Shown: positions 5,141-32,771, counted from the stretch's first letter. The stretch is 34,438 nt of DNA from an uncultured Planctomycetaceae bacterium (GCA_903921945.1 CAIXSC010000173.1:1-34438); one strand, 5' to 3'. The notes: generated by a model not told the origin, from the letters alone. Translations and numbers: made by a program.

Positions 5141-6409
5141 ATGCAAGAGGCCAAAAACACGGCGCGGGCCTTGGTCCGCATCGGCTTCGATGGAAGCGTA
5201 CACAAGCAATTCCGAGCGAAGGACGCCGAGAGCCGCTTCGACAACGAAGTGCGGGTGCTCCGGTATCTCGAACAGCGCGGATGCAATTTCGTGCCGCGAA
5301 TCATCAGTTGCGATCGCGAAAAGCTGATTTTGGTCACCACCAACTGCGGAGCGCGTGTCCAGCAAATCAGCGAGGAAAAGTTGCGGTCGCTGTTTGCCGA
5401 GCTGGAAAGCTATGGTGTCCGCCACGACGATCCGTTCCTGAGGAATGTGACCTATCGAGCTTCGGATGGACGGTTCTGCATTATCGACTTTGAATTCGCC
5501 ACGATTCTCGACGAAGCCGACGCCGAGCGGCTCGGGGCGGGCTTTTCGGCGGCCGACCTGCCCGGGGGGACGGCCGAGCAATCGCCCGCACCACAATTGC
5601 TTCGTTGGTCGGGCCTGACCGACATTGGCCGTTTTCGCCCCAATAACGAGGACGCGTTTTTGGGCATCGCCTTCAATCGCCAGGATCTGTATTTCCTCGG
5701 CAAAGAAGGGGACGCGCACGCCAAGGGAATGGACTACATCTTCGCGGTCAGCGATGGGATGGGAGGCGAGCGGTCCGGCGAATTCGCCAGCAAGTTCACG
5801 CTGGACAACATCACTCGGTTGTTGCCACGACGATTCCAGTTATTGCCGGCCCATCGACGCGTCGGCATCCGCGAATGCTTGCTCGACTTATTCCAGGGAA
5901 TCCATCGACAATTGACCAGCCTCGGCCAAAGTTACGCGGAGGGGCACAATATGGGTTCCACGCTCAGTTTGATCTGGTATGTCGGCGGCTACGCCCACTT
6001 CGGCCACATTGGCGATAGCCGTATTTACTTGCTGCCCAAGGACGGCGGGATTCGCCAAATCACCGAGGATCACACCTACGTGGGATGGCTCCGCCGAAGC
6101 GGTCAGTTGAACGAACGCGAAGCCCGCTTCCACCCGCGTAAAAACGTGCTGAACCAATCGCTCGGGGCCGGTGCGCAATCGATCCACCCGCAGATCGGCG
6201 AACTGGCGTGCCAACCCGGCGACCGCATCCTGCTCTGCACCGATGGCGTGATCGAAGGACTCTGGGACCGCGGGCTGGAAGAGGCGATACGCTGCCCCGC
6301 GGGCCCGTATGCCGCGAACGGGCCCGCCGAGCGGATTGTGAGGATGGCGGTCGAGGAATCCGGCCGTGACAATGCGACGGCCGTCGTGGTCGAAATCGAG
6401 CATGCTTGA
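5141..6409 (+). CDS. Fusion protein: N-terminal minimal protein-kinase-like domain plus C-terminal PP2C (PPM) Ser/Thr phosphatase, 422 aa
   Basis: The N-terminal ~130 aa carry kinase-like motifs: VHKQF (Lys), NEVRVLRYL (Glu), GVRHDDPFLRNV (HxD...N catalytic loop) and IIDFEFA (DFG-like). The C-terminus has PP2C motifs: TDIGRFRPNNEDAF, AVSDGMGGERSGEFAS, GHIGDSRIYLL, ITEDHT, LLCTDGV, DNATAVVVE. Confidence 0.8.
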   Translation: MQEAKNTARALVRIGFDGSVHKQFRAKDAESRFDNEVRVLRYLEQRGCNFVPRIISCDREKLILVTTNCGARVQQISEEKLRSLFAELESYGVRHDDPFLRNVTYRASDGRFCIIDFEFATILDEADAERLGAGFSAADLPGGTAEQSPAPQLLRWSGLTDIGRFRPNNEDAFLGIAFNRQDLYFLGKEGDAHAKGMDYIFAVSDGMGGERSGEFASKFTLDNITRLLPRRFQLLPAHRRVGIRECLLDLFQGIHRQLTSLGQSYAEGHNMGSTLSLIWYVGGYAHFGHIGDSRIYLLPKDGGIRQITEDHTYVGWLRRSGQLNEREARFHPRKNVLNQSLGAGAQSIHPQIGELACQPGDRILLCTDGVIEGLWDRGLEEAIRCPAGPYAANGPAERIVRMAVEESGRDNATAVVVEIEHA

Positions 6410-6491
6410 TGAGTCGGCTGGCAGCAAGCCTTGGGGTGTTCGGGTGGGTCGCGTAAGCCGTCCGTGAAATGGTGAAACCGGCGAATCGGGC

Positions 6492-6514
6492 AATTCCGGG
6501 CCACGGATTTTTTT
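6492..6514 (+). terminator. Weak candidate terminator downstream of the kinase/PP2C gene
   Basis: A short hairpin, AATTCCG-ggcca-CGGATTT (4 strong bp), overlaps and is followed by a T7 run. The stem is weak. Confidence 0.3.
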
Positions 6515-6578
6515 CGCGAAATGGGTCGTCTTTGCGCAAGTGCCTATCGTTTCTTGATTTGCGTGTGGCGAATCAATC

Positions 6579-6606
6579 TTGACGGTGTTTGGCGACCCGA
6601 TATAAT
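6579..6606 (+). promoter_or_regulatory. Near-consensus sigma-70-type promoter for the response-regulator/kinase operon
   Basis: TTGACG (6579-6584), a 16 nt spacer, then TATAAT (6601-6606). This is striking in a GC-rich intergenic region. It would give a leader of about 225 nt before the ATG at 6838. Confidence 0.45.
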
Positions 6607-6837
6607 CCCGTCCGTTGGCAAGCTCGGTAATTCGGGAAGAAACGGTGGAAACTGCCGATTCTACCGGAGCCGGAAGAGCGGAAGCTTGCACACGCCACGG
6701 AGTCTGAAACCGAAGGATCATTGGACCAGGCGCTCTCAAGTGTCGCCGGGGCACGCCAAACACGCGGTAATCCAGGCAGGGTAGCCGGATGCGTCGTTTG
6801 CCCACGGACCGGCGCAACGCGGGGGTAGGAAGGACGG

Positions 6838-7434
6838 ATGTCTGACATGAGTAGCAAGACCGTATTTACCACAGGCGAGGCCGCGAAGATTTGCAAGGTT
6901 AGCCAGCAGACGATCATCCGCTGCTTCGACAACGGAACCTTGAAGGGGTTCCGAGTGCCAGGCAGCCGTTTTCGCCGGATACCCCGCGATCAATTGTTCG
7001 CCTTCATGCGTGACAACGGCATCCCGACCGATGCCCTGGAGAGCAGCCGCCGCCGTATTCTGTTGGTCGATGACGATCAAGAATTGGTCGACCTGCTCCG
7101 CGATGCCTTCGAACGCGATGGCCGTTTCGAAGTCCACACCGCGAATAACGGCTTCGACGCCGGTATGAAGGTCAAGGAACTGCGTCCCGACCTCGTGGTG
7201 CTCGACGTCATGCTGCCCGACATCAACGGCAAGGAAGTTTGCCAGCGAGTTCGTAGCGACGAATCGCTTGATTCGGTGAAGATCATCTGCATTTCCGGTA
7301 TGGTCGAGCAGGACAAAGTGGAAGAACTCCGCGCGGCCGGGGCCAACGATTTCCTGCAAAAGCCGTTCGCGGTCGAACGGTTGCTCGACCAAGTCTGCGG
7401 GCTGCTGGATATGCAGCGAGCCTTGGTCAGCTAG
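6838..7434 (+). CDS. Response regulator with N-terminal excisionase/MerR-type HTH and C-terminal receiver domain, 198 aa
   Basis: The N-terminus FTTGEAAKICKVSQQTIIRCFDNGTLKGFRVPGSRFRRIPRDQL resembles an HTH_17/excisionase-type helix-turn-helix. The receiver part reads RILLVDDD...PDLVVLDVMLPDING...FLQKPF. GGAAGGA lies upstream of the ATG. Confidence 0.85.
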   Translation: MSDMSSKTVFTTGEAAKICKVSQQTIIRCFDNGTLKGFRVPGSRFRRIPRDQLFAFMRDNGIPTDALESSRRRILLVDDDQELVDLLRDAFERDGRFEVHTANNGFDAGMKVKELRPDLVVLDVMLPDINGKEVCQRVRSDESLDSVKIICISGMVEQDKVEELRAAGANDFLQKPFAVERLLDQVCGLLDMQRALVS

Positions 7435-7449
7435 CCCAACGCGGTCCGC

Positions 7450-8975
7450 ATGCTAAGTCTTCCCCCCTTACGACTTGGCGAACGGATCGTGTGTTTGCCT
7501 CTCTCCCCGCTGGGGTCGATCGACCTAGCCAATCTTTGGCTGAACGCGGGAGCGGGGGAGCGGCCTAGTGGTTGGGAAACTCTGCTGGTGCAGGAGCCAG
7601 CGTTGGCCCTGTGGGCGGCGCTGGTCGGCCCGCCCCATCCCTCGCCCGCCGCATCCCGTGCCGCGACGGCAGTCCCGGCGTCTCTCAAGCCAGACTGCGG
7701 CACGCTTGAACTGGCTTCGCTGGCAGTGGTCTGCGAAGCGCGATTGTTGCCCGCCTATCAGGGATTTCGCCCAAGGTCGGCGACGCCCAGCGAGTCCGCG
7801 ACCCACCGCGATGGTTTCGACGCCGCTGCGTGGTCGGACGGTCTATGGGCGATTCGCGCGGCGCGCCGCGGCTTGCGAGCCGACGTCGCCGGCCTCACCG
7901 GCGAAGTTTGGACCGCCGAATGGCTCGGAGATGCGGCCGAATGGACGGAACGAGCGCAGTGCGTTGCCGTCGAGGGCGACTTGAATGTCGATTCGCCGAG
8001 CGACTTCCAGTATTCGAACATCATCGAGGCGATGAGCGGCCGACTCGAAAGTTTGGCCGCTTTGCGGCGAAAACGCCGTCTTGGGGCTTTGCCGGAACTG
8101 ACGGCGGAAATCAAGTCGGCTCTATTGGCCCGTTGGTCGACTGCTGGTCCGGCGGTCGATCTTGTCGCGCTGGCTCAAAGGTTGGGAGACGCGGCGGAAC
8201 AAGCGGTTCGCTTCCGCCAAGAACTCGCTCAGCAAAAACTGGTCGCGCTTCGCGATTTGGCCTACGGAGCGAGCCACGAGATCAACAACCCGCTGGCGAA
8301 TATCGCAACGCGGGCCCAAGGGCTGATGCGTGACGAACGGGATCCCGAACGCCGGCGCGGACTCGCGGTCATCGCCAGTCAAGCCATGCGAGCGCACACG
8401 ATGATCACCGATATGATGCTGTTCGCGAAACCGCCAGCGCTCCGCCCCGCGCTTGTGGCCTTGGAGGAATTGCCGACATGTATCCTGGCGGAGCTTGGGA
8501 CGCGTGCCGCCGACCAACAGACGGTGCTCGCCATCAGCTCGCCACGTCCCCGGCTTTGTCTGATTCCGCCTCGCCGGTTGCGATGGCGGATCGCGAACAA
8601 CTTTTGGTTGCCCTTCGCGCTCTGGTCGAAAACTCGCTGGAAGCGCTTGGGCAGGGGGGGCGGGTTGAGATCGGCCCCCTGCCGCCGACCGCCGCGACAT
8701 GTGGATTCCAAGTGATCGATAACGGACCGGGAATTCCCATCGAAGCGCGTTCACGGCTGTTTGATCCGTATTACTCGGGCCGCGAGGCGGGCCGTGGACT
8801 CGGATTGGGCCTCTGCAAAGCTTGGCGGATTGTCACCGATCACGGTGGCCGATTGTCGTTTGACGAGCAGTTCGCGCCGGGGGCTCGATTCGTGCTCGAA
8901 CTTCCGCGACACCAGGACTCGTCAGTTCGCCGTGTGCTGCACGGCGAACTTCAAGCGGAGCCCGCCGGTTCCTGA
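7450..8975 (+). pseudogene. Cytoplasmic sensor histidine kinase interrupted by a single-base frameshift (or sequencing error)
   Basis: The frame of ORF 7450-8715 carries the HisKA H-box (LAYGASHEINNPLANI) and then degenerates into Arg/Trp-rich nonsense. The frame of ORF 8478-8975 carries HATPase motifs: PVAMADREQLLVALRALVENSLEA (N-box), VIDNGPGIP (G1), GRGLGLGL (G2). The frames can be joined at the C4 run 8548-8551, where one extra C gives ...AISSPRPPALSDSASPVAMAD.... Confidence 0.7.
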
Positions 8976-20703: not shown

Positions 20704-21699
20704 CTACTCGGGACGACGCGGCCGTTCGGGCCGCTCGACGCCGGGACCGGGTCGGCCGCCGGGCCCTGCGCCGCGTTCACCCGGACCGCCAGGCCCCGGA
20801 CCTCCGGGCCCTGGACCTCCAGGACCGAAACCGCCTGGGCCAACGCCTCCAGGACCGCCGCCTCCGGGGAAGGGCCCACCTTGGCCAGGTCCGCCTGGGC
20901 CGCGCCGGCCGGGGCCAGCGTGCTGACGAACGAAATCATCAATGAAGGCGCGTAACTCTTCAGCGCCGAGCTTGCCGTCTTTGTCGCGATCGAACGACAT
21001 CGCGTGATCCATCATGCGTTGGGGATCGGGGCCGGCTGGAGGTCCGCCTTCCGGCCGCGGTGGTCGTGGTCCGCCATCGGGTCCGCCTTCCGGCCGCGGT
21101 GGTCGCGGTCCGCCTTCGGGTCCGCCTTCCGGCCGCGGTGGTCGCGGGCCAGCGTCGGGTCCGCCTTCCGGCCGCGGTGGTCGCGGTCCGCCATCGGGTC
21201 CGCCTTCCGGCCGCGGTGGTCGTGGTCCGCCATCGGGTCCGCCTTCCGGCCGCGGTGGTCGCGGGCCGGCGTCGGGTCCGCCTTCTGGTCGCGGTGGTCG
21301 CGGGCCGCCATCGGGTCCGCCTGGTCCCCCCGGTCCGCCAAAGCCCGGACGGAAGCCTTGCGGTCGGTATTCGTCTTCGGTCAGTTTGCCATCACGATTC
21401 CGATCCAAGGTGGCCAAAGCGGTTGCCGCGTTCTTGAGCTCTTCGGCCGAGATTTCGCCGTTGCGATCGGCGTCCAGTGCCGCGATCAGTGGACTTGCCA
21501 TCCGTGGACCTGGAGGGCCGCCCGGTTGAGGGCCGCCGGGCGGCGGCCCTTGTGGACGGTCGGGGCCGCCGCGTCCGGGGCCGGCACCTGGCGGCCTTCC
21601 GGGGTCGCCACCGTCAGGTTTTCCTGGTGGCTGTGCGATGGCCAACACTGTTCCGCACGCGACCGCCGCCGCGCCAAATCCTGCTATCCATTTTTGCAT
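20704..21699 (-). CDS. Secreted EF-hand calcium-binding protein with Pro/Gly-rich 13-aa repeats, 331 aa
   Basis: The signal peptide reads MQKWIAGFGAAAVACGTVLAIA. There are three canonical EF-hand loops: DADRNGEISAEE, DRNRDGKLTEDE, DRDKDGKLGAEE. The middle region is (GGPDGGPRPPRPE)n. The ORF-track start at 21708 is a GTG; I prefer the ATG at 21699. Confidence 0.8.
   Translation of the reverse strand: MQKWIAGFGAAAVACGTVLAIAQPPGKPDGGDPGRPPGAGPGRGGPDRPQGPPPGGPQPGGPPGPRMASPLIAALDADRNGEISAEELKNAATALATLDRNRDGKLTEDEYRPQGFRPGFGGPGGPGGPDGGPRPPRPEGGPDAGPRPPRPEGGPDGGPRPPRPEGGPDGGPRPPRPEGGPDAGPRPPRPEGGPEGGPRPPRPEGGPDGGPRPPRPEGGPPAGPDPQRMMDHAMSFDRDKDGKLGAEELRAFIDDFVRQHAGPGRRGPGGPGQGGPFPGGGGPGGVGPGGFGPGGPGPGGPGPGGPGERGAGPGGRPGPGVERPERPRRPE
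21041..21313 (-). repeat. 39 nt in-frame tandem repeat, 7 copies plus a partial copy
   Basis: The plus-strand unit ggtccgccttccggccgcggtggtcg(t/c)ggtccgcc(a/t)tcg recurs exactly every 39 nt from 21041. It encodes the GPRPPRPEGGPDG repeats. Confidence 0.9.
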
Positions 21700-21754
21700 T
21701 GCCTGCACCCTATTATGGTTGACTAGAAACGAACGATTTATGTCGACGGTGGAA

Positions 21755-23293: not shown

Positions 23294-23716
23294 CGGAGCA
23301 TCCCCATACGGAACGTGAAGCTAGTCGCCGCGCGAGCGAACGCTGCGCGCACGAAACTCGGCGATGGCTGAACGCAACAGAGTAACGTCCGCCGTCCCCG
23401 GTTTATTGCGGGGCGTCCGAAAAAAGCCATCGCAGCGGAAGCCGTCCGGGGAATCTCTCGCTCGGGAGCAGCGCGATTGCCACTCACCGTGGAATATGGA
23501 TTCTCCGACAGCGTTGAAACGGGCCAATTCGACGTCGCAAGGGCACCTGTTGGAAGTGGCCGGCGAGTCGGCGGCCATCGCCGCGGCCACGGGATGTTCC
23601 GGGGATTCGCGCGACCGCAGGGGGGCTTCGCATTTGACATTCCACTGCGGAACCGATTACAGTTTCGCGGTCGAGAAGGGATTGATTCGCTAGGAAAGCG
23701 GCTGGGGAAACGGACA

Positions 23717-24721
23717 GTGCTATTCCATCGGGACACGTTTCGCAGCCTTCACGCGCGTTGGCTGGCGTTGGCGATTGTGGCCTTCGCGGCCAGTGCCCTA
23801 GCGTACGTGTGGGAATGGCGGTTGATCGGAGCGCTCCCGGGCGGCGGTTCCCGCGTCGGCTTGGTGCTTGGCGTTGTCGCGGGCATCATTTGCCTGTTTG
23901 AATTCGCGCTCGTAGGGCGCAAAACGCGTTGGTTCCGCACGCGTCGGCGGATTCTCGGCCTATCGATCGGCTCGGCGAAAGCTTGGATGGCCGCCCATAT
24001 TTGGCTCGGTTTGCTCGCCGTGCCCCTGGTTTTTTTGCATAGCGGCTTCCAGTTCGGCGGACCTCTGACCACCGCGTTGGCGTGGCTGTTCGCGTTGGTG
24101 ATCGCCAGCGGCGCGGCCGGTTTGGTGCTTCAAAACATTTTGCCGCGACTCATCACCGATTCGATTCCTGAAGAGACCATCTATTCACAGATCGACACCG
24201 TGGGGCGGCAGTTCGCGGCGGACGCGGTGCGGTTAGCGCAGCGTTACGCCGGACCCGGACCGCGTGGTCTGTGGGACGACTTCGAGTCGCAATTCGCCGC
24301 CGAGCGAGGTGTGGCGGGCGATGTGTTGGTGGTCGGCGCGCCTCGCCGCGTGGGCACGATCGTCACGCCCACACCGCACGGTGAACTTGAGAAACCGCTC
24401 GCGGCCGACTCCCCCGAGCTGCACGCGGCGCTTCGCGATCAGGTTGTCGCCTTCCTCTCGACTGGCCGGGCGGCGTCGGCCGATTTCTCATCGGTCGCGC
24501 GGATTCGCTGGTATTTCGAAGACCTGCGGCGTCGGGTTGTCCGCGACGCCGCCCCTGCGATCGACCAGATTGAGTCGCTCTGCCTGCAACGTCGGCAAAT
24601 GGAACGGCAGAAGAACCTGCATGTCGTTTTGCACTGTTGGCTGTCGGTCCACTTGCCGCTGTCGGTGGCGCTGATGTGGTTGTTGGTCGCTCACGTTTTT
24701 GGCGCCCTGCTGTATGCATAA
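23717..24721 (+). CDS. Polytopic membrane protein with conserved-looking His in TM helices (candidate b-type haem or quinone-interacting subunit), about 334 aa; start uncertain
   Basis: Predicted TM helices: WLALAIVAFAASALAYVW, VGLVLGVVAGIICLFEFALVG, WMAAHIWLGLLAVPLVFLHSG, LTTALAWLFALVIASGAAGLVL. A ~170 aa soluble segment follows, then a terminal TM LHVVLHCWLSVHLPLSVALMWLLVAHVFGALLY. I chose the GTG at 23717; the longest ORF starts at a TTG at 23477 (GGGAG upstream). Confidence 0.6.
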   Translation: MLFHRDTFRSLHARWLALAIVAFAASALAYVWEWRLIGALPGGGSRVGLVLGVVAGIICLFEFALVGRKTRWFRTRRRILGLSIGSAKAWMAAHIWLGLLAVPLVFLHSGFQFGGPLTTALAWLFALVIASGAAGLVLQNILPRLITDSIPEETIYSQIDTVGRQFAADAVRLAQRYAGPGPRGLWDDFESQFAAERGVAGDVLVVGAPRRVGTIVTPTPHGELEKPLAADSPELHAALRDQVVAFLSTGRAASADFSSVARIRWYFEDLRRRVVRDAAPAIDQIESLCLQRRQMERQKNLHVVLHCWLSVHLPLSVALMWLLVAHVFGALLYA

Positions 24722-24754: not shown

Positions 24755-26575
24755 ATGAGTCCACCTGTCGGTCCCCCGCAATCACCGGCGAAGCAGCGAG
24801 CGCTCCGCATTCCGCTCGATTATTACAAGCGGTGGACCGCTCTCGATCGCGCGAAGTGGATGCTCGCGGCGCTCGCGACCATCGTGGGCGCGGCCTACGC
24901 GGTTTGGGTCGTGGCGGGGTATCGGAGCGGCGCGGCGGCCCGCCAGTTCTCGCCGGGCCATGTGACGCTAGCCCACGCGGCTTGGAACGACCGCTGCGAT
25001 GCGTGCCACGAACCGGGTACGCCACTCAACCCGCACGCCGGTGGCAGCGAGACCCTGCGACAATGGTTGACGGGCGGAACGAAGCCGGCCCGGTTGCTGA
25101 ACGAACAAAAATGTGTCGCCTGCCACCCAGCGGCGACCCACCATCCCCGTCAAATCGCCGACCAAGTTGAAACTTGCGCTTCCTGCCACCACGATCACGC
25201 CGGCGTCGACGCCGATCTGAAGCAAGTCGCCAGCGAACGTTGCATCGCCTGCCATGCGGAGATCGCCGGCCACTCCACGCTGGCCACCGCGACTCCGGCG
25301 GTGAATGTCGCCTCCTGGGCAACTCATCCCGATTTCCGTGCCTTGGATCATGCTGATCCGGGTCGAGTCAAATTCAATCATCGATTGCACCTGCTTCCGG
25401 GGCAGTACCCGCGGGACGCGAAACCTTCCGCCTTGAAACGACTCGGCACGATCCACAAGTCGTATTGGAATCTCCTTGGTTACGCCCAGGACGCGTCACC
25501 CGATACCGTGGTGCAACTCGATTGCTCGGCGTGCCACGAATTCGAAGAAACCTCGGGCCGTCTCGCCTCCACCCGTTCAACGACCGGTTCGCTTGAGAAC
25601 TCAACAACAGAGTCCGCTGCGACAGAGTCCGCTGCGACAGAGTCCGCATCAACAGAGTCCGCTGCGAAACGGGGTGGTCCGCAGAGCGGTGCTTCGAGTC
25701 CGCTGGTGAGCGGGAATGTGCCGGCCACCGGCGCCTACGCGTTGCCGATCCGTTACGAGCGTCACTGCGCGTCTTGCCATGACGCCGACCTTGCGGCAAC
25801 GGTGGAAGGCTCGCGTGGTGCTGTTCGCGCGTCGATTCCGCATGGTTCGTCGCCGGACACGATCCGCGGCCTTCTCCGCGGCGCGTTCTTGGCCGCCGAA
25901 AGCGATTCGAGCACCGCGACCGGTGGCGGCGTTGCACGCGGCACTCCCGGTGACGGTCCGCTGGTTCCACGCCGCGCCGTGCCCGGCCGTTCGCTGCGGA
26001 GCAACGATGCTGGTCAATCGACGGGCACCAGTCTCGAAGCGATTCCCGCGGCGGCCCGCGTTCGACAGGCCGAATTGCAATTGGCGGCGGAAAGCCACTG
26101 TGGGAAATGCCATCCGTTTTCCGCGGCAGACGCGTCGCGCGGCACGGCCCAAGTTGCGGCGGCGACGGACAGTGAACTGCTCGCGGTGGGCCCGACACAG
26201 ATTCCCGCGATCTGGTTATCCAAGGGCGGTTTCGACCATGCCGCGCATCGCGCGTTGCGCTGCGATGCGTGCCATGAATCGTCTTCGTTCGAGTGGTCCG
26301 CGGGCGGCAAGCCGCCAATCGATGATGCCAAGCCGAAGATCCCGCGAATTGACAACTGTCGCCAGTGCCATGGCGATTCGCCGGCTCAGACGAAGGCGTC
26401 CGTCGCGGTTCGTGCGGATTGCGTGACGTGCCATCGCTATCATGCTGCCAACGATCCGCCGCACGGACACGGCGCCCCCTCGCACACGCCGCCGCCGGCG
26501 CGCCGAATTAGCGCCCGCGAGTGGCTCGATGGCCGCTTTTACCGATCGGAACTTGCCGAGGGGACAACGCCGTGA
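24755..26575 (+). CDS. Membrane-anchored decaheme c-type cytochrome, 606 aa
   Basis: Ten CXXCH motifs: CDACH, CVACH, CASCH, CIACH, CSACH, CASCH, CGKCH, CDACH, CRQCH, CVTCH. The N-terminal anchor reads WMLAALATIVGAAYAVWVVAGY. Confidence 0.87.
   Translation: MSPPVGPPQSPAKQRALRIPLDYYKRWTALDRAKWMLAALATIVGAAYAVWVVAGYRSGAAARQFSPGHVTLAHAAWNDRCDACHEPGTPLNPHAGGSETLRQWLTGGTKPARLLNEQKCVACHPAATHHPRQIADQVETCASCHHDHAGVDADLKQVASERCIACHAEIAGHSTLATATPAVNVASWATHPDFRALDHADPGRVKFNHRLHLLPGQYPRDAKPSALKRLGTIHKSYWNLLGYAQDASPDTVVQLDCSACHEFEETSGRLASTRSTTGSLENSTTESAATESAATESASTESAAKRGGPQSGASSPLVSGNVPATGAYALPIRYERHCASCHDADLAATVEGSRGAVRASIPHGSSPDTIRGLLRGAFLAAESDSSTATGGGVARGTPGDGPLVPRRAVPGRSLRSNDAGQSTGTSLEAIPAAARVRQAELQLAAESHCGKCHPFSAADASRGTAQVAAATDSELLAVGPTQIPAIWLSKGGFDHAAHRALRCDACHESSSFEWSAGGKPPIDDAKPKIPRIDNCRQCHGDSPAQTKASVAVRADCVTCHRYHAANDPPHGHGAPSHTPPPARRISAREWLDGRFYRSELAEGTTP
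25607..25666 (+). repeat. 15 nt in-frame tandem repeat (acagagtccgctgcg, 4 copies) encoding (TESAA)n
   Basis: Direct reading; the protein shows TTESAATESAATESASTESAA in a linker between haem motifs 5 and 6. Confidence 0.85.
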
Positions 26576-28326
26576 TGCTGTCCCCGCGTAAACTTGTCCG
26601 CCGCTTCGCCGCGGGACTGTGTGTGGCTGGCTTGGTGTTGGCGTTGCGGGTTGTCCCGGACGGCGCCCCTTCCGCGTCCCGCGCGACGTTCGCCGCGCCT
26701 CAGGCAGCGACTGCATCTTCGGCGGTCCCGGCGTCGGTTCCTTCGGCAGTCCGTGCGGCAGTCCCTTCGCCCGCGGTGGTGGCGGCGAGCCAGTTGTCGG
26801 CCGCACCTAACTCGCCGGCGCCGCCGGCTTCCACAGGGTGCTCGGCTTCCGCCTGCCACGGCGACCCTGTGGCAGGTGAGGTCCGCGATTGGCGTTCCGC
26901 CGCCACGGCGTGGTCGCTGTTCGATCCCCATCGCCGCGCCTTCGCCGTGCTTTACTCGCCGCGCTCCGTGGAGATCTACGACAATTTGCAGCGAGCCGAG
27001 CAGGAAGGCGCGCCGACGAGCATGCTTCGAGCCTCTCAAGGCACGGCTGACACCGCCGCGTCTGCCGCAATCGAAGGGCCTGATCCAGCGGCGTACGCGC
27101 GGTTCCTGGCCGAACGCTGCATCGGTTGCCACGCGACGTCGCAAAAGCCGGAAGCACCGATCGAGACGCTGGCCGGAGTGACCTGCGGCTCATGCCATCC
27201 CAGCGACTCGGCCGAATGGACGGCCGGCCACTATCTTTCAACCTTCCCTGCGAAGTCCACGGTTGACGGCGCATCGCCGGCCGCTCGCGGAGATCTGTGC
27301 AGCTCGTGCCACCTTGGTCCGAAACGCGCGAGCGGACGTGTGTTTGATGTCAATCACGACCTCATCGCCGCCGGCCACCCGCGGATGCTTTTCGAACTCG
27401 ATTCGCTCTTGGCGAACTACCCCAAGCATTGGGACGAACGCGCGGTTGCTTCCAAGCGGCAAACCGCCGAGGGAGCCCGCTTCCAACACCTTGATCAGTG
27501 GTTCGCGGGCCAAGTCGCTGCCGCTCGCCGAACGCTGGATCAGCTAGAGCATCGCGCCGCGCTGGCGTCGCCCGACTTCGCGCAGTTCGCTTGCGGCGAT
27601 TGCCATCATGCCTTGTCGCCGCCGACCGGCCCCCGTCCACGGGCGGCGCGAGCGGCTTCACGTAAGGGCTCGCCTCGTCCGAGTCTCGAGTCGGTGGAAA
27701 CGCTGTTGTCGGGGCCGATAGCAGAGCCGACTGTCGGGGCGGCCGCCGCGTCCTCCGGTGGAGTTTCCACTGCGGACGTGCTCGAATCCGTTCGCCGCCA
27801 ACTGGAACGCTTCCAGCCATTCGACGACGCTGGCCGCGCGGCGATTGCGAAGCTGCGAGAACGCGTCGAGGCGGTTGCGAATCGCGGACCCGCGACGGTT
27901 GCCGATCATCGCGCTGTTGCCCGCTGGCTCGCCGACCAACTCCGCGAGCCGCGGCGGATCGATTCCTGGGATGCGGCTGTCGAGCGGTTGCTGGCCGTCG
28001 ACGCGTTCCGCGCCGATCTGCCGTCCGCCGCGTCGCCGACCGCGGATTCGCCTCCCGCCAAGGCGGCGGTCGCGGCCTTGAACGAAGCGTTGGAGAGGCT
28101 GCGGGCGGCGCTCTCCGATCCAGCATCGTTTGGACAAAACGGGGCGACGAGCGTTTCGACGTCTGTCCCGCCTCTGATTCCGACTCTCATTCCGACTCTG
28201 TACGACACGCCGGCGGCGTTCGATCCGAGCGTCATCGAGCCGTTGTTGCGGGCGGTCGCGGAACGGCTGGATGATCCCGCGTTTCCACTGCCCGCGTTTC
28301 CGAATCCCGAGGGTTCGCGACCATGA
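26575..28326 (+). CDS. Multiheme c-type cytochrome (4 CXXCH plus 1 CX4CH), cytochrome c554/HAO-like N-terminal half and Ala-rich helical C-terminal half, 583 aa
   Basis: Its ATG overlaps the upstream TGA (GTGATG at 26572-26577). The signal/anchor reads MLSPRKLVRRFAAGLCVAGLVLALRVV. Motifs: CSASACH, CIGCH, CGSCH, CSSCH, CGDCH, plus NHDLIAAGHPRMLFE. Confidence 0.8.
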   Translation: MLSPRKLVRRFAAGLCVAGLVLALRVVPDGAPSASRATFAAPQAATASSAVPASVPSAVRAAVPSPAVVAASQLSAAPNSPAPPASTGCSASACHGDPVAGEVRDWRSAATAWSLFDPHRRAFAVLYSPRSVEIYDNLQRAEQEGAPTSMLRASQGTADTAASAAIEGPDPAAYARFLAERCIGCHATSQKPEAPIETLAGVTCGSCHPSDSAEWTAGHYLSTFPAKSTVDGASPAARGDLCSSCHLGPKRASGRVFDVNHDLIAAGHPRMLFELDSLLANYPKHWDERAVASKRQTAEGARFQHLDQWFAGQVAAARRTLDQLEHRAALASPDFAQFACGDCHHALSPPTGPRPRAARAASRKGSPRPSLESVETLLSGPIAEPTVGAAAASSGGVSTADVLESVRRQLERFQPFDDAGRAAIAKLRERVEAVANRGPATVADHRAVARWLADQLREPRRIDSWDAAVERLLAVDAFRADLPSAASPTADSPPAKAAVAALNEALERLRAALSDPASFGQNGATSVSTSVPPLIPTLIPTLYDTPAAFDPSVIEPLLRAVAERLDDPAFPLPAFPNPEGSRP

Positions 28327-30218
28327 TTGTGCAAGAGCTGCTGCGCTTGCAGGACACGTTTGGCTACCTGCCTCGGAAGCAGATGGCGGCGCTTGCTCAT
28401 CGCCTATCCGTGCCGCTCTACCGAGTCCATGAGGTGGCGACGTTTTTTCCCCACTTCACGGTGTTTCCCACCGACGAAGAGGAGCGGCGTGGCGCGGCGG
28501 CGCTGCCCGAATTCGAAGTCGCCGTCTGTCGCGACATGGCCTGCCAACTTCGTGGAGCTCCCCAATATGTGGAGGCGCTCGAGAAGGCGGCGGCCGCTCA
28601 CGGTGGCAAAGTCCGAGTTCGCAGCGTTTCCTGCCTGGGGCGTTGCGACCGCGCACCGGCCGTGCGCATCGTTCAACACGCGTCCGGCGATGCGGGCTCG
28701 AGTCATTCCGATGCCCAGGACTCGTCGAATCACGGGCATCACGTGCGCGCCTTGATGGGAAGGCCGGTCGCCGAGGTCGTTGCTGTGGCCCAGTCGGTGT
28801 TCGCAGGCCGCGTCGATGACCGTTTGCCCGACGATCGGGACATCGCGTTTCCCCCGAGCCAAAACCCGGCCGAATGGCGCATCGATGCTTACGGAGGACA
28901 ACCGCGCGAGGCCCGTTACGCGGCGATTCGCCGGTTTGTGGCCAGCGCCTCCACCGACCCAAGTTTCAATAGCGAACGGGTTCGCATTATCAAGGCGCTG
29001 CAAACGGCGAATCTGCTCGGCATGGGTGGCGCTGGGGGACGGGCTTACAAGAAGTGGAGCGAAGTCCGCGAAGCGACTGGCGAGCGGCGCTACGTGGTGT
29101 GCAACGGCGATGAGAGCGAGCCGGGCACGTTCAAAGACCGCGAACTGTTGTTGCGGGCGCCGCATCTGGTCGTCGAAGGCATTTTGCTCGCCGCCCTGGT
29201 GGTTGGGGCCGAGCACGCCTTCCTTTACATCCGCCACGAATACGAAGAGGCGATCGAAGCGGCGCGACAGGAAATCGCGTGGGCTCGCCAGTATGGACTG
29301 TGTGGCGACAACATCCTCAACTCGGGATTGCGCTGCGATCTGCAAGTGTTCGTCAGCCCGGGCGGCTACATCTGCGGCGAGCAGACAGCGATGGTCCAGG
29401 CGATCCAGGACGAACGTGCCGAGCCCCGGAACCGGCCGCCCGAATTGCAGACGAACGGACTGTGGAACATGCCGACGCTGGTGAACAACGTCGAAACGCT
29501 CGCCTGGGCCCCCGCCATCGCGATCGCCGGCGACGGTTCGGGCCGCTGGTATGCCGACCATGGCCTCGCGGGTTATCAAGGGGCCCGATTTTTTTCCGTG
29601 TCGGGCGATGTCGAAAAGCCGGGCGTTTACGAGGTTCCCATCGGGATCACGCTGGGCGAGCTTTTGGACAATTACTGCGGCGGCATTCAAGGCGGCAAAC
29701 CGATCAAGGCGTTCGCGCTTTCCGGCCCGTCGGGCGGTTTTCTTCCGCCTGTTCTGCCGCTCGATTCGTTCAGTCCGGAAACTCGGGACAAGGTCAAAAA
29801 GTTGGCGGGCGAAGACGCGAACGCTTTCGATCTTCGCAAACTGCCGCTCGATCTGGGCGTCACTCGGCAGTTGAAGTTGATGCTCGGCGCGGCGATCGTC
29901 GTCTACGCGGAAGGCTCGGACCTTGTCGCGCAGATGCTGGCTTGCCAGCGTTTTTACCAAGCCGAGTCTTGCGGCAAATGCGTGCCGTGTCGAATCGGGT
30001 CGGCGAAGCTGGTTTCGATCGGCGAGGATTTGCGGACCGGCAAGCTCGATCAAGCTGCCGCTAACCGGTTGAGCGACCGGCAACAGAGCGAACTGTTCGC
30101 GTTGGCGCAGGCGATGGCGGACACCGCGATTTGTGGACTCGGCACTTCCGCCCCGAATCCGCTCAAATCGCTGCTCGCGTACTTCCCCCAAGATGTCTCC
30201 AAACACCTCCGGACCTAA
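28323..30218 (+). CDS. NuoE-NuoF fusion: NAD(P)H-oxidising flavoprotein (2Fe-2S thioredoxin-like domain plus FMN/NADH/4Fe-4S 51-kDa-type domain), 631 aa
   Basis: ATGA overlap with the upstream gene. The NuoE-like part reads YRVHEVATFFPHF, VAVCRDMACQLRGA, VSCLGRCDRAPAV. The NuoF-like part reads GMGGAGGRAYKKW (FMN), VVCNGDESEPGTFKDRELL (NADH), SPGGYICGEQTAM, PTLVNNVETLA, ESCGKCVPCRIG...ICGLG (4Fe-4S). Confidence 0.9.
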   Translation: MIVQELLRLQDTFGYLPRKQMAALAHRLSVPLYRVHEVATFFPHFTVFPTDEEERRGAAALPEFEVAVCRDMACQLRGAPQYVEALEKAAAAHGGKVRVRSVSCLGRCDRAPAVRIVQHASGDAGSSHSDAQDSSNHGHHVRALMGRPVAEVVAVAQSVFAGRVDDRLPDDRDIAFPPSQNPAEWRIDAYGGQPREARYAAIRRFVASASTDPSFNSERVRIIKALQTANLLGMGGAGGRAYKKWSEVREATGERRYVVCNGDESEPGTFKDRELLLRAPHLVVEGILLAALVVGAEHAFLYIRHEYEEAIEAARQEIAWARQYGLCGDNILNSGLRCDLQVFVSPGGYICGEQTAMVQAIQDERAEPRNRPPELQTNGLWNMPTLVNNVETLAWAPAIAIAGDGSGRWYADHGLAGYQGARFFSVSGDVEKPGVYEVPIGITLGELLDNYCGGIQGGKPIKAFALSGPSGGFLPPVLPLDSFSPETRDKVKKLAGEDANAFDLRKLPLDLGVTRQLKLMLGAAIVVYAEGSDLVAQMLACQRFYQAESCGKCVPCRIGSAKLVSIGEDLRTGKLDQAAANRLSDRQQSELFALAQAMADTAICGLGTSAPNPLKSLLAYFPQDVSKHLRT

Positions 30219-30224
30219 CGCGCT

Positions 30225-32771
30225 ATGGCCGACAACGTGTTTTTCGACGAACTGGCGCAGTCCTGGGAAGAGGAAGGCCTCTTCGCTCGCGACTTGAATG
30301 GCCAGTTGATTCGCGTCGTCGCGAAGACCGAGCAGGACTATTCGCGATACGTGACGGTGGTCATCGACGGCCAGGAGATCCAGGTGCCGCGCGCCGTCCC
30401 CACCACCGACGCGCAGGGCAACATCGTGCATGTCGACGCCGCTGGTCGCACGGTTCCGCGCGCGACCACTATCTTCGACGCCGCGCAGCAACTCATCCAG
30501 CGCGCGAACGCCGCCCGCCGCCAGGCCGATCCGCAGGCTTCGCCGGTTCCCAATCCGATTCCGACGCTGTGCCATTTGGAACATTTGAAGCCGGTCGGTG
30601 TTTGTCGCGTTTGTTCGGTGGCGGTGGAGACGTTCGAGGTCGATCCGCGCAACCCGAATGAAAAGAAACGCAAGCGGCAGGAAAAGCTGGTTCCCGCCTG
30701 CATGCAACCGGTTGAAGACAACATGATCGTCCACACGCTCGAATCGCCCGACTCGCGGCAACGCGGCAAGGTGGAACAGAGCGTGAAAGTGTTGTTCGAA
30801 CTGCTCGGGTCCGACCATTTGCCATCCTCGCCCCCCGCCCGTGGCGAGCAAGCGAGCGATCTGGAACGGCTCTTCGAGCGTTACAGCGGCCGGCTCGGCG
30901 CCCGCCGCGACCGCTTCGCACGGGCCGAAGCGCCGATCGCACCGCAAGACGACTCCTCGCCGCTCATCCATGTCGACCACGACGCCTGCATCCTGTGCGA
31001 TCGCTGCTCGCGCTCGTGCGGCGACGTCAAACAAAACTTCATCATCGGCCGGCAGGGTAAGGGCTATCTCGCGCAAATTGGCTTCGACCTCGGCAATCCG
31101 ATGGGCGAGTCGAACTGCGTCGAATGCGGCGAATGCATGCTCGCCTGTCCCACCACCGCGCTGACGTTCCGTAAACCGGTCGAGTCGGACTGGTACCGCG
31201 AGCAGTTGGCGAAACCGGGCCGCGCCGCCGTGTCCCCCGGCGAAATGGAGGAGAACGAGCTGCTGCGGACCTTGCCGTGGCGCTACCGTCAGTGGAACCA
31301 AAGCTCTGTGCTGCGTTGGCGAGTGAAACGCGGCGACGAACTGTGTCGGCTCGGCGACTACGGCTCGACCGCTTTTGTGCTGCATAGCGGTTCCTTCGGC
31401 GCTTGGCTGCCGCGTCGCGACGCCACTAGCGGCGCGTTGGCCGCCGGCTGGGATCAAGGCGAGCCGACCTTTGTGTGCGGACCGGACGAATTGATACTCG
31501 GAGAAATGACGATCCTCAGCCAATATCCGCGGAACGCCACCGTCCGCGCGCTGGCCGACGGCGAGGTTTACGAAATCCGCCGCAACGTGCTTTTCACCTT
31601 GCAACGCAGTCCGGAAGCTCGCGAAAAACTCGATCGCGTCTATCGCCGCCGCGCGATCTCCAACCACCTGAACAAAGTCCCGCTCTTCGCGAAACTCTCG
31701 GAGGACGACCGGCGGAAATGCCGAGACTTGTTGCTCCGCGAGCCGTCAGCCGCGGCCGGCGCGGCAGGCGGCCGGCGATCGATCGAACTGGTTCACGTCG
31801 ATCCCGGACAGACGATTTTCCGCCAGGGCGAGCGGGCCGACTGCTTCTACATGATCTACATCGGCCACGTGAAAGTCTCGCAGACGTTTGGCGGACAGGA
31901 ACGCGTGCTGACCTATCTGCGGCCCGATCAGTCGTTCGGCGAAATCGCCTGTATTGGCGATTGGCCGGAGATTCGCGACGCGATTCCGCCCGACCAACGC
32001 GGGCCGCTCGACAACCGTCGGGCCGCTTCGTGCGCGGCACTGGATGATGTCGCTTTGGTTCGCATCGACGCTTCCGCCTTTCGCGCGTTGCTCCGCGAAG
32101 TGCCCGCGTTGAAAGCGCAAATCATCGACCAAGCCCGCGGGTACTTGGCCGATCGGCAAGGGCCCAGTCCGGCAGCCGCGCCGAAACGCCAGACCAGCAG
32201 TGAACTCCAAGCATTCACGGACCAGGGACTGTACAACGCGCAGCGGCTCTTGGTGCTTGACCTGGAATCGTGTACTCGATGCGATGAGTGTACCAAGGCC
32301 TGTTCGGACACCCATTCCGGTATCACTCGGCTGATCCGCGACGGCCTCCGGTTCGACAAGTGGCTGGTCGCCAGCAGTTGCCGCAGTTGCACCGATCCAT
32401 ATTGCTTGGTGGGATGTCCGGTCGACGCGATTCATCGTCTCGATCCGAATAGCTCGCATCAGCCGATCCGTATTTCCGCCGCCGATCGGCATCCCGATTC
32501 GCAACGCACCGAAATCCAGATCGAAAACAATTGCATCGGGTGCGGTTTGTGCGCGAAAAACTGTCCCTACGGCAACATCAATATGCACGGCGAAGAACGG
32601 CTGGATGCGGCCACCAAGCGGCCGGTCGTGCAGTTCCGCGCGACCACCTGCGATCTGTGTGGCGATATCGTCGGCAATCAATGGCGCGATGTCAGTTGCG
32701 TCTACGCTTGCCCTCATGATGCGGCTCATCGCGTTCGCGGCGATGAACTCCTAACTATGCTCCGTCGTTGA
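30225..32771 (+). CDS. Multidomain Fe-S protein: HoxU/NuoG-N-terminal-like 2Fe-2S plus 2x[4Fe-4S], two cyclic-nucleotide-binding domains, and a C-terminal DmsB/NrfC/HybA-type 4-cluster ferredoxin, 848 aa
   Basis: The 2Fe-2S pattern reads PTLCHLEHLKPVGVCRVCSV...PAC. CILCDRCSRSC and CVECGECMLACP follow. The cNMP-like segments read ILGEMTILSQYPRNATVRALADGEVYEI and FRQGERADCFYMIYIGHVKV...FGEIACIG...RRAASCAALDDVALVRI. The C-terminal clusters are CTRCDECTKAC, CRSCTDPYCLVGCP, CIGCGLCAKNCP, CDLCGD...CVYACP. Confidence 0.85.
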   Translation: MADNVFFDELAQSWEEEGLFARDLNGQLIRVVAKTEQDYSRYVTVVIDGQEIQVPRAVPTTDAQGNIVHVDAAGRTVPRATTIFDAAQQLIQRANAARRQADPQASPVPNPIPTLCHLEHLKPVGVCRVCSVAVETFEVDPRNPNEKKRKRQEKLVPACMQPVEDNMIVHTLESPDSRQRGKVEQSVKVLFELLGSDHLPSSPPARGEQASDLERLFERYSGRLGARRDRFARAEAPIAPQDDSSPLIHVDHDACILCDRCSRSCGDVKQNFIIGRQGKGYLAQIGFDLGNPMGESNCVECGECMLACPTTALTFRKPVESDWYREQLAKPGRAAVSPGEMEENELLRTLPWRYRQWNQSSVLRWRVKRGDELCRLGDYGSTAFVLHSGSFGAWLPRRDATSGALAAGWDQGEPTFVCGPDELILGEMTILSQYPRNATVRALADGEVYEIRRNVLFTLQRSPEAREKLDRVYRRRAISNHLNKVPLFAKLSEDDRRKCRDLLLREPSAAAGAAGGRRSIELVHVDPGQTIFRQGERADCFYMIYIGHVKVSQTFGGQERVLTYLRPDQSFGEIACIGDWPEIRDAIPPDQRGPLDNRRAASCAALDDVALVRIDASAFRALLREVPALKAQIIDQARGYLADRQGPSPAAAPKRQTSSELQAFTDQGLYNAQRLLVLDLESCTRCDECTKACSDTHSGITRLIRDGLRFDKWLVASSCRSCTDPYCLVGCPVDAIHRLDPNSSHQPIRISAADRHPDSQRTEIQIENNCIGCGLCAKNCPYGNINMHGEERLDAATKRPVVQFRATTCDLCGDIVGNQWRDVSCVYACPHDAAHRVRGDELLTMLRR

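Follow-up and report, generated by a model that had tools for sequence, protein, structure and literature searches.

How electron flow through an iron-sulfur (Fe-S) relay might come under the direct control of a second messenger is the question raised by a single gene in a 34,438-nucleotide stretch of DNA from an uncultured Planctomycetaceae bacterium (GCA_903921945.1 CAIXSC010000173.1:1-34438; hereafter the window, meaning the whole stretch that was analysed). The gene, an ATG-initiated open reading frame (ORF) at 30225..32771 on the + strand, encodes an 848-residue protein in which a HoxU-like Fe-S module is followed by two cyclic nucleotide-binding (CNB) domains, CNB-A and CNB-B, and by a C-terminal four-cluster ferredoxin, termed here Fd4. 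Respiratory and Fe-S complexes are usually controlled through gene expression, substrate supply and membrane potential, and we know of no described Fe-S relay that a cyclic-nucleotide second messenger controls directly and allosterically; the respiratory chains of planctomycetes are, moreover, poorly understood. Taken as a whole, the protein, its family and its partner genes would be best explained as an electron conduit across the membrane, fed by reduced nicotinamide adenine dinucleotide (NADH), whose ferredoxin arm is switched by cyclic AMP (cAMP) or cyclic GMP (cGMP), a reading built on sequence analysis to which we assign a probability of roughly 0.45. Below, we present the evidence for each component and weigh the alternatives that each permits.

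The domain architecture is the component that we regard as practically certain. A preliminary description of the locus had proposed a HoxU/NuoG-like N-terminus, two CNB segments and a DmsB-type four-cluster ferredoxin, in that order, within 848 amino acids, and the Pfam and NCBIfam matches together with the cysteine spacing bear this out. The GC content at third codon positions (GC3) of the ORF is 0.75, and its codon-position GC profile is the same as that of the neighbouring genes. Pfam assigns residues 111-172 to Fer2_4 and 249-312 to a 4Fe-4S dicluster domain. It also detects 4Fe-4S motifs at 716-835 and, in two separate stretches, cNMP_binding (PF00027), which scores 92 bits (E 2.4e-26) where the gathering score is 27.5, a profile match that upholds the CNB assignment; the scan returned no output domain of the kinase, cyclase or DNA-binding type. 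In NCBIfam, residues 111-321 align to the N-termini of HoxU, [FeFe]-hydrogenase and NuoG, and the C-terminus aligns to DmsB, NapG, AegA, HycB-type and NuoI-type ferredoxins. All of these NCBIfam scores fall far under the equivalog cut-offs (84.2 vs 333 bits for HoxU NF005745 and 40.4 vs 470 bits for NuoG TIGR01973; for Fd4, 36 vs 214 bits for DmsB TIGR02951 and 38 vs 269 bits for NapG, with AegA also below), and the protein is therefore covered by no curated family.

The Fe-S ligands were followed through 81 sequences from species-level genomes spanning 40-94% identity, the set to which all counts out of 81 refer, and all 28 ligand cysteines of the protein are kept in 80-81 of them. The N-terminal module opens with a [2Fe-2S] ferredoxin domain (residues 43-175; 30351..30749, +), the Fer2_4 domain of Pfam, which aligns to the N-termini of HydA1 and NiFe-HydA and whose ligands C116, C127, C130 and C159 are present in 81/81. 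It is followed by what appears to be the remnant of a His-ligated [4Fe-4S] site (residues 176-245; 30750..30959, +). In the alignment to HydA1 (8a6t_A), H198, unchanged in 81/81, falls on the histidine of the H-x3-C-x2-C-x5-C motif (the N5/FS4C equivalent), the three cysteines of which are replaced; residues 160-254 contain no cysteine, and the 176-245 region differs in length among homologues. On this alignment the His-ligated [4Fe-4S] cluster of HoxU, NuoG and HydA is missing, such that the N-terminus retains the [2Fe-2S] and two [4Fe-4S] clusters of the preliminary description but is HoxU/NuoG-like only in part. The two [4Fe-4S] clusters belong to a 2x[4Fe-4S] ferredoxin domain (residues 246-318; 30960..31178, +; Pfam Fer4_9 and Fer4_10) with CxxCxxCxxxC at 255-265 and CxxCxxCxxxCP at 298-309, all eight cysteines being invariant. 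In sequence as well as in fold, residues 110-320 match best to HydA1 (8a6t), NiFe-HydA (7t2r, 7t30) and the FdsA-type formate dehydrogenases.

At the other end of the chain, Fd4 (residues 673-848; 32241..32771, +) carries the four cysteine motif groups of the DmsB/HycB/NrfC type at 683-693, 719-731, 770-780 and 809-829, each kept in 80-81 of 81 sequences, and among PDB sequences it matches ActB (6f0k_B), AorA (8c0z_C), HycB3 (7qv7) and HycB (7z0s_B). Fd4 is of the same fold type as DmsB, NrfC and HycB but, by its equivalog scores, does not belong to a named subfamily. It is the most conserved region of the protein, with a mean pairwise identity of 0.74; the values for the [2Fe-2S] domain, CNB-A and CNB-B are 0.56, 0.53 and 0.50. 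An AlphaFold2 model built from a 68-sequence alignment has a mean predicted local distance difference test score (pLDDT) of 76.8 and a predicted template modelling score of 0.68, with pLDDT values of 80-97 in the N-terminal Fe-S module as well as in the two CNB domains (residues 346-645 for the tandem). Fd4 (32241-32768) is thus the best conserved region and yet the one with the lowest pLDDT, to which a cluster-free model and a shallow alignment may contribute. Ahead of the [2Fe-2S] domain, residues 8-30 (30246-30314) include W14, E15, E17, G18, L19, F20, R22, G26, L28 and R30, all invariant or nearly so and modelled at pLDDT <52; this N-terminal motif may be a docking peptide for the NADH-dehydrogenase flavoprotein described below or for another partner.

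Between the two Fe-S modules lies the CNB tandem, for which the model predicts the eight-stranded beta-barrel fold with its flanking helices. Foldseek searches of the PDB return as top matches the CNB-A/B tandems of PKA and PKG regulatory subunits (E ~1e-15; 6rsx, 4z07, 1rl3), and as next matches, to the N-terminus of the protein, HydA of HydABC, NiFe-HydABCSL and NAD-dependent formate dehydrogenases. CNB-A (residues 346-462; 31260..31610, +) matches Pfam cNMP_binding, is modelled at pLDDT 85-97, and holds its phosphate-binding cassette at 31500-31550 as G426-E427-x8-R436-N-A438-T439...A442, with V440 directly after the threonine. An inter-domain helix (residues 463-490; 31611..31694, +; helix at 463-484 according to DSSP), which aligns to the inter-domain segment of RII-alpha and is the counterpart of the PKA B/C helix, leads into CNB-B (residues 491-626; 31695..32102, +; best Pfam stretch 523-579). 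The cassette of CNB-B, at 31935-32039, is expanded: F571-G572-E573 and R599-A-A-S602-C603, the latter preceded by R598, are separated by 25 residues. The motifs quoted in the preliminary description, including the insertion in the second, are in this way found in place. By phmmer, the CNB-A cassette ILGEMTILSQYPRNATVRA is in register with those of yeast Bcy1 and PKA RII-alpha (GELALMYNxPRAATV), and the inter-domain segment aligns with the start of PKA domain B. The protein thereby shares with PKA and PKG two CNB beta-barrels joined by a long helix; it differs from them in that the kinase partner, the inhibitor sequence and the docking domain are all missing, that the CNB-B loop is longer, and that its tandem sits within a bacterial Fe-S protein.

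Whether these domains bind a ligand is addressed by their cassettes. In CNB-A, G-E-x8 is kept in 81/81 sequences, the arginine in 80/81, the alanine in 81/81 and the threonine in 80/81; the corresponding counts for CNB-B are 81/81 for G572, 76/81 for E573, 79/81 for R599 and 79/81 for a threonine or serine at position 602. On this record the cassette residues are under strong purifying selection, and both sites look binding-competent in the clade, CNB-A in canonical and CNB-B in modified form. The CNB domains are also about as conserved as the [2Fe-2S] domain, which makes a regulatory ligand site plausible and a decayed remnant unlikely in the clade; the degenerate, non-binding variant that the preliminary description had allowed for accordingly loses ground. 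We consider it moderately probable that the protein binds a cyclic nucleotide monophosphate (cNMP), and the ligand of the CNB domains would most likely be cAMP or cGMP. The family consensus of the cassette, R-T-A-T, is like that of PKG sites, a likeness that is not decisive for cAMP versus cGMP; the protein itself has R-N-A-T in CNB-A and R-A-A-S in CNB-B. Two cysteines that are not cluster ligands, C374 in CNB-A (31344-31346; kept in 81/81) and C603 just after the CNB-B cassette (32031-32033; kept in 77/81), could possibly form a thiol switch or a metal contact.

The same region admits a reading without regulation, in which the tandem would be a structural scaffold or dimerisation element standing in for a catalytic domain and binding its ligand constitutively or not at all. 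The tandem does begin exactly where the catalytic domains of HydA and FdsA start, after the dicluster domain, the cassette arginines are lost in some family members, and the CNB-B cassette is expanded in the clade, where its E-to-R spacing is 18-31 (25 in the protein itself) as compared with the canonical 8. Set against this, the ribose-phosphate contacts of PKA and CAP (G, E, R and T/S) are near-invariant over the whole 40-94% identity range, which is hard to explain for a spacer, and the paralogues introduced below keep canonical cassettes in both domains. On balance a scaffold is quite unlikely. Among representatives at 50% identity that bear the N-terminal module, the cassette is intact in 51/63 for CNB-A and in 42/63 for CNB-B; the CNB-B spacing is 8 in 6/63 of these and in 10/11 of the representatives that lack the module. 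The canonical 8-residue spacing in several HoxU-containing representatives rules out the idea that the CNB-B insertion marks the HoxU fusion.

The genes encoded with the protein give the CNB tandem its likely context. The protein is the last product of a five-gene operon, g414-cytA-cytB-nuoEF followed by the gene itself, in which cytA and cytB overlap at TGATG (ATG at 26575), cytB and nuoEF overlap at ATGA, and nuoEF is separated from the last gene by 6 nucleotides. Scans for promoters and terminators gave counts no higher than the shuffle expectation. Immediately upstream, nuoEF (28323..30218, +) encodes a fused NuoE-NuoF NADH-dehydrogenase flavoprotein with Pfam 2Fe-2S_thioredx, Complex1_51K, SLBB and NADH_4Fe-4S domains; it is NuoF-like, falls under the equivalog cut-off (320.8 vs 558.65 bits), and has the motifs of the NADH site and of the flavin mononucleotide (FMN) site. 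Its cysteine sets are those of clusters N1a (69, 74, 104, 108) and N3 (550, 553, 556, 604) only, and the chain ends 27 residues past the last N3 cysteine. Electron bifurcation of the type seen with the NuoF of HydABC or NfnABC was considered and rejected, since the NuoF part has neither an N-terminal [2Fe-2S] nor a C-terminal 2x[4Fe-4S] domain and so is more like the non-bifurcating type.

Two multihaem cytochromes precede nuoEF. The first, cytA (24755..26575, +), encodes a decahaem c-type cytochrome with ten CXXCH motifs and an N-terminal membrane anchor (hydrophobic helix at residues 35-56); Pfam finds Cytochrome_C7 and MtrC/MtrF domain II/IV, and a separate search gave a weak match to the DmsE-family decahaem cytochromes. 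A 15-bp tandem repeat within cytA (25607-25667) encodes a TESAA-type low-complexity linker between haem-binding blocks. The second, cytB (26575..28326, +), encodes a pentahaem c-type cytochrome with four CXXCH motifs and one CX4CH, and with a signal sequence or anchor (hydrophobic segment at 28-49).

The first gene of the operon, g414 (23717..24721, +), encodes a five-helix membrane protein that is likely a dihaem cytochrome b. Its ORF starts mechanically at 23477, about 80 codons too early; homologues of ~330 residues, which cover ~80% of that ORF, point to the GTG at 23717. Of the five hydrophobic helices, helix 3 carries H174 and H188 and helix 5 carries H392 and H406, the members of each pair being 14 residues apart; each of the four is conserved in 54 or more of the 55 homologues, H92 in at least 53/55 and H386 in 50/55. 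The loop between helices 2 and 3 is strongly basic, a positive-inside pattern consistent with one haem near each face: with this loop placed inside, one histidine of each pair would lie near each membrane face, in the classic two-haem transmembrane arrangement. The AlphaFold2 model (pLDDT 87) and the alignment also delineate a conserved cytoplasmic helical domain of ~160 residues. A family-wide Pfam scan of 56 members gave sub-threshold matches to DUF4405 in 54/56 and to Ferric_reduct and Ni_hydr_CYTB in 11/56 each, the best DUF4405 match having an E-value of 4.2e-5 and the g414 of the window scoring 17.1 bits against a cut-off of 26.7; these three are two-haem cytochrome b families of one Pfam clan.

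The operon is not peculiar to the window. The protein has >120 full-length homologues at 46-92% identity, annotated in general terms, for example as "cyclic nucleotide-binding domain-containing protein", and an exhaustive search of representatives returned 482 clusters at E <= 1e-30. Of 230 matched stretches (one genome per species), the best 80 loci, which form the synteny set, are all labelled Planctomycetota; they include the cultured genera Rhodopirellula, Novipirellula, Rubripirellula, Roseiconus, Neorhodopirellula and Aporhodopirellula, as well as metagenome-assembled genomes assigned to Planctomicrobium and Isosphaeraceae. The survey that the preliminary description had called for thus finds the architecture to be widespread in Planctomycetota and generically annotated. 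Full-text literature searches on planctomycetes, cNMP binding, Fe-S and multihaem topics found no paper on this family, in keeping with the supposition that the architecture had not been described functionally; a Desulfatiglans paper considered as a candidate description is unrelated to it. In these 80 loci, nuoEF lies directly upstream of the homologue in 75, most of the others ending at a contig edge. Inside a 10-kb range, g414 and cytA are present at 54/80 loci and cytB at 59/80. The arrangement extends over the orders Pirellulales, Planctomycetales and Isosphaerales. No further gene family is conserved around the gene across the 80 loci, and the FG-GAP gene downstream was rejected as part of the system, as it is syntenic in the three closest relatives only.

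One representative, P0136, joins NuoE, NuoF, HoxU, CNB, CNB and Fd4 in a single chain of 1483 residues, a fusion that supports a physical association of NuoEF with the protein. It was found on a 98.9-kb contig (JGI sample 3300047160), where it is flanked upstream by a divergent REC-GGDEF gene and downstream by PSCyt2/PSD1 and DUF1501, which are planctomycete markers; its CNB-B cassette is degenerate (FSP...YPAN), and no adjacent gene at this locus has a cytochrome match in Pfam. An electron-transfer context for the protein appears rather probable. A much narrower function would be that of a soluble diaphorase, in which NuoEF and the protein pass electrons from NADH to a ferredoxin or other acceptor and the cytochrome genes are functionally unrelated. 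Sequence analysis found no transmembrane segment and no signal peptide in either NuoEF or the protein, and in several genomes the cytochrome genes do not lie within 10 kb. However, the five-gene synteny extends over three orders, the genes are translationally coupled in the window, and g414 and cytA accompany CNB-CNB-Fd4 even where NuoEF and HoxU are lacking, all of which makes a soluble diaphorase the least probable of the alternatives considered.

The arrangements that lack NuoEF and HoxU are found among representatives that match over CNB-CNB-Fd4 only. Their N-termini consist of one or two FHA domains (P0213, P0236, P0244), extra CNB domains (P0212, P0226) or an unassigned segment (P0216, P0228), and both of their CNB domains keep canonical cassettes. 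Six loci were sampled for the neighbourhoods of these paralogues. In four of the six (L081, L082, L084, L085) a g414 homologue lies directly downstream of the CNB-CNB-Fd4 gene (hhalign E 1.1e-51 and 1.8e-44; hmmsearch E 1e-70 to 1e-82). A cytA-like cytochrome is likewise present in four of the six, after the g414 homologue in L081, L084 and L085 and upstream in L083, the contig of L082 ending first; none of the six has nuoEF or cytB. The paralogous clusters, at 2463-6855 of L081, 4643-8367 of L082, 450-5345 of L084 and 8001-14210 of L085, combine the g414 homologue with FHA-FHA-CNB-CNB-Fd4, with CNBx3-Fd4 or with X-CNB-CNB-Fd4, and at least one of them comes from Planctomycetota. Upstream of the L081 cluster, a divergent gene encodes a second FHA protein.

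Because the paralogues retain these partners without the HoxU part, CNB-CNB-Fd4, the membrane protein and cytA would constitute the conserved unit, to which NuoEF and the HoxU-like module supply one input. Connector lengths agree with CNB-CNB-Fd4 as a unit, being fixed inside the tandem and toward Fd4 and variable ahead of it: the connector from CNB-A to CNB-B (A442-F488) is 45 residues in 73/81 sequences, the distance from CNB-B to F664 is 51 residues in 51/81 and that from F664 to the first Fd4 cysteine is 18 residues in 81/81, while the connector from HoxU to CNB-A ranges from 42 to 61 residues. The HoxU-like module accordingly looks like a variable add-on, and the protein is better seen as the product of fusing an NADH-dehydrogenase input to a module that already existed, made up of ferredoxin, cytochrome b and multihaem cytochrome and regulated through CNB domains. 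For the preliminary description this means that CNB domains "inserted between Fe-S modules" holds as a statement of sequence order but not of history, given that CNB-CNB-Fd4 also occurs with FHA or extra CNB domains in place of the HoxU part.

The paralogues also lend themselves to a sensory function, in which the system would report the redox state of the periplasm or membrane to the CNB domains, or to FHA domains in the paralogues, rather than carry electrons in bulk. The paralogues join CNB-CNB-Fd4 to FHA phosphopeptide-binding domains with no recognisable electron-input enzyme, and L081 has its further, divergent FHA protein. Such a sensor is nevertheless improbable for the protein of the window, which is coupled to a complete NADH-oxidising flavoprotein (fused to it in P0136) and has no output domain of its own; moreover, its seven Fe-S clusters, with two more in NuoEF and fifteen c-haems, would be excessive for sensing.

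In the conduit that we favour, the protein would be the cytoplasmic electron-transfer subunit of a conserved, respiratory-type module of Planctomycetota. NADH would be oxidised by the fused NuoE-NuoF (FMN, N1a, N3), and electrons would enter the [2Fe-2S] and 2x[4Fe-4S] clusters of the HoxU-like module and pass onward to Fd4. Fd4 would be docked on the cytoplasmic face of g414, whose two b-haems, stacked across the membrane, would hand the electrons to the membrane-anchored decahaem CytA and the pentahaem CytB on the periplasmic side. Outward transfer from NADH, favoured by both redox and membrane potential, would dissipate both, which we infer to be the rationale for a fast post-translational gate.

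The CNB tandem, PKA/PKG-like and tied to Fd4 by connectors of fixed length, would serve as that gate, an allosteric switch moving CNB-CNB-Fd4 relative to a loosely tethered HoxU-like donor; the switch could alternatively act at the docking on the membrane partner, the conduit being turned on or off in either case. In PKA, the regulatory subunits undergo a large cAMP-driven rearrangement, and the element connecting CNB-A and CNB-B rearranges strongly on ligand binding. Fe-S relays require cofactor gaps of ~14 Å or less, and this limit leaves no room for the CNB domains between clusters when the relay is conducting, so that the physical interposition of the two domains between relay modules, as envisaged in the preliminary description, is excluded for that state. 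Gating would therefore have to proceed by movement, that is, by docking and undocking of the Fd4 unit. PKA offers a precedent for such a mechanism, which we hold tentatively and consider less likely than not.

A distinct version would leave the HoxU-Fd4 gap unchanged and have the ligand control the binding of CNB-CNB-Fd4, together with NuoEF and HoxU, to the cytoplasmic domain of g414, in the manner of partner release by PKA. It would account for the adjacency of g414 to CNB-CNB-Fd4 whatever the N-terminal module, for the conserved ~160-residue helical domain of g414, and for the paralogues without an N-terminal Fe-S module, in which regulation cannot act on a gap within the molecule. The fixed-length junction of CNB-B and Fd4, however, fits either model equally, and we regard control at the membrane in this form as unlikely.

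Several observations count against a cNMP-switched, NADH-fed conduit. The CNB-B cassette loop is 10-23 residues longer than canonical in the clade, which may alter or abolish binding, and the cassette arginine has been lost from one or both CNB domains of some distant representatives (P0131, P0143, P0152 and CNB-B of P0136); because of these losses, cNMP binding is not universal in the wider family. Fd4 and the linker preceding it are modelled at low confidence (pLDDT 34-60 for Fd4). The modelled fold of g414 has no PDB match with E <0.1, and g414 taken alone has no match at threshold among PDB sequences, Pfam or NCBIfam. The cytochrome genes are not adjacent in some genomes (L019, L050, L069, L077 and the P0136 locus), and the FHA-headed paralogues, having no obvious electron-input module, also fit a signalling role.

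Comparison with characterised systems indicates which features of the module have precedents. The HoxEFU diaphorase and the NuoEFG, FdsGBA and HydABC systems likewise pair a NuoE-NuoF flavoprotein with a subunit whose N-terminus holds [2Fe-2S] and then 2x[4Fe-4S] clusters; the protein of the window differs from their subunits in having no His-ligated [4Fe-4S] cluster and no hydrogenase or molybdopterin domain, and in adding the CNB tandem and Fd4, while its NuoE and NuoF are fused and its NuoF has no extra clusters. NarGHI and FdnGHI resemble the membrane side, each combining a DmsB-family four-cluster ferredoxin with a membrane protein bearing two histidine pairs, here together with multihaem c cytochromes. 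The predicted logic of the module, an Fe-S chain leading through two haems across the membrane to periplasmic haems, would also resemble that of transmembrane cytochrome complexes such as Geobacter Cbc/CbcL and Desulfovibrio Hmc/Tmc. Unlike in all of these, g414 lies outside established families, the proposed input is NADH via NuoEF, and a CNB tandem forms part of the Fe-S subunit; a quinone site cannot be made out.

CNB domains fused to non-transcriptional effectors are also known from the mycobacterial cAMP-regulated acetyltransferase Pat (4orf, 4onu) and the EAL enzyme Bd1971 (6hq2), both among the sequence matches of the protein, and from MloK1-type channels and family 2B encapsulins, in the shells of which CNB insertions have been described (PMC8346489). 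None of these four is a redox or electron-transfer system, in contrast to the protein studied here, and the literature search found no described CNB domain inside an Fe-S relay subunit. The parts are of known kinds, namely NADH-dehydrogenase modules, CNB switches and Fe-S/dihaem-b anchors, and their combination appears to be new. More broadly, a cytoplasmic CNB-CNB-Fd4 together with a novel, probably dihaem, membrane protein and a multihaem c-type cytochrome could represent a previously unrecognised class of second-messenger-gated transmembrane electron conduits in Planctomycetota, in which cAMP or cGMP connects or disconnects an Fe-S wire and which, with an NADH dehydrogenase plugged in, would form a cNMP-controlled valve between NADH and periplasmic cytochromes that bypasses the quinone pool. 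We consider this generalisation doubtful. Should the conduit model hold, electron flow would prove to be regulated by a principle that is new, membrane cytochromes b would gain a new family, and there would be a candidate path for electrons from cytoplasmic NADH to periplasmic multihaem cytochromes that does not depend on quinones.

Elsewhere in the window, none of the scanned ORFs was seen to encode a nucleotide cyclase. A 39-bp tandem repeat of 7.2 copies with a 92% match (21041-21322) lies inside two overlapping ORFs, one at 21004-21726 on the + strand, which has no Pfam match, and the other at 21012-21341 on the - strand, with a GC3 of 0.98. At the beginning of the window, 2-2827 on the - strand holds a partial groEL, groES and a second groEL, in that order, with a 27-bp repeat (1085-1172) located near the 3' end of the last. 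A run of signalling genes at 5141-8715 comprises a fusion of an APH-like kinase with a PP2C phosphatase (5141-6409), a response regulator combining HTH_17 with a receiver domain (6838-7434), and a HisKA protein (7450-8715).

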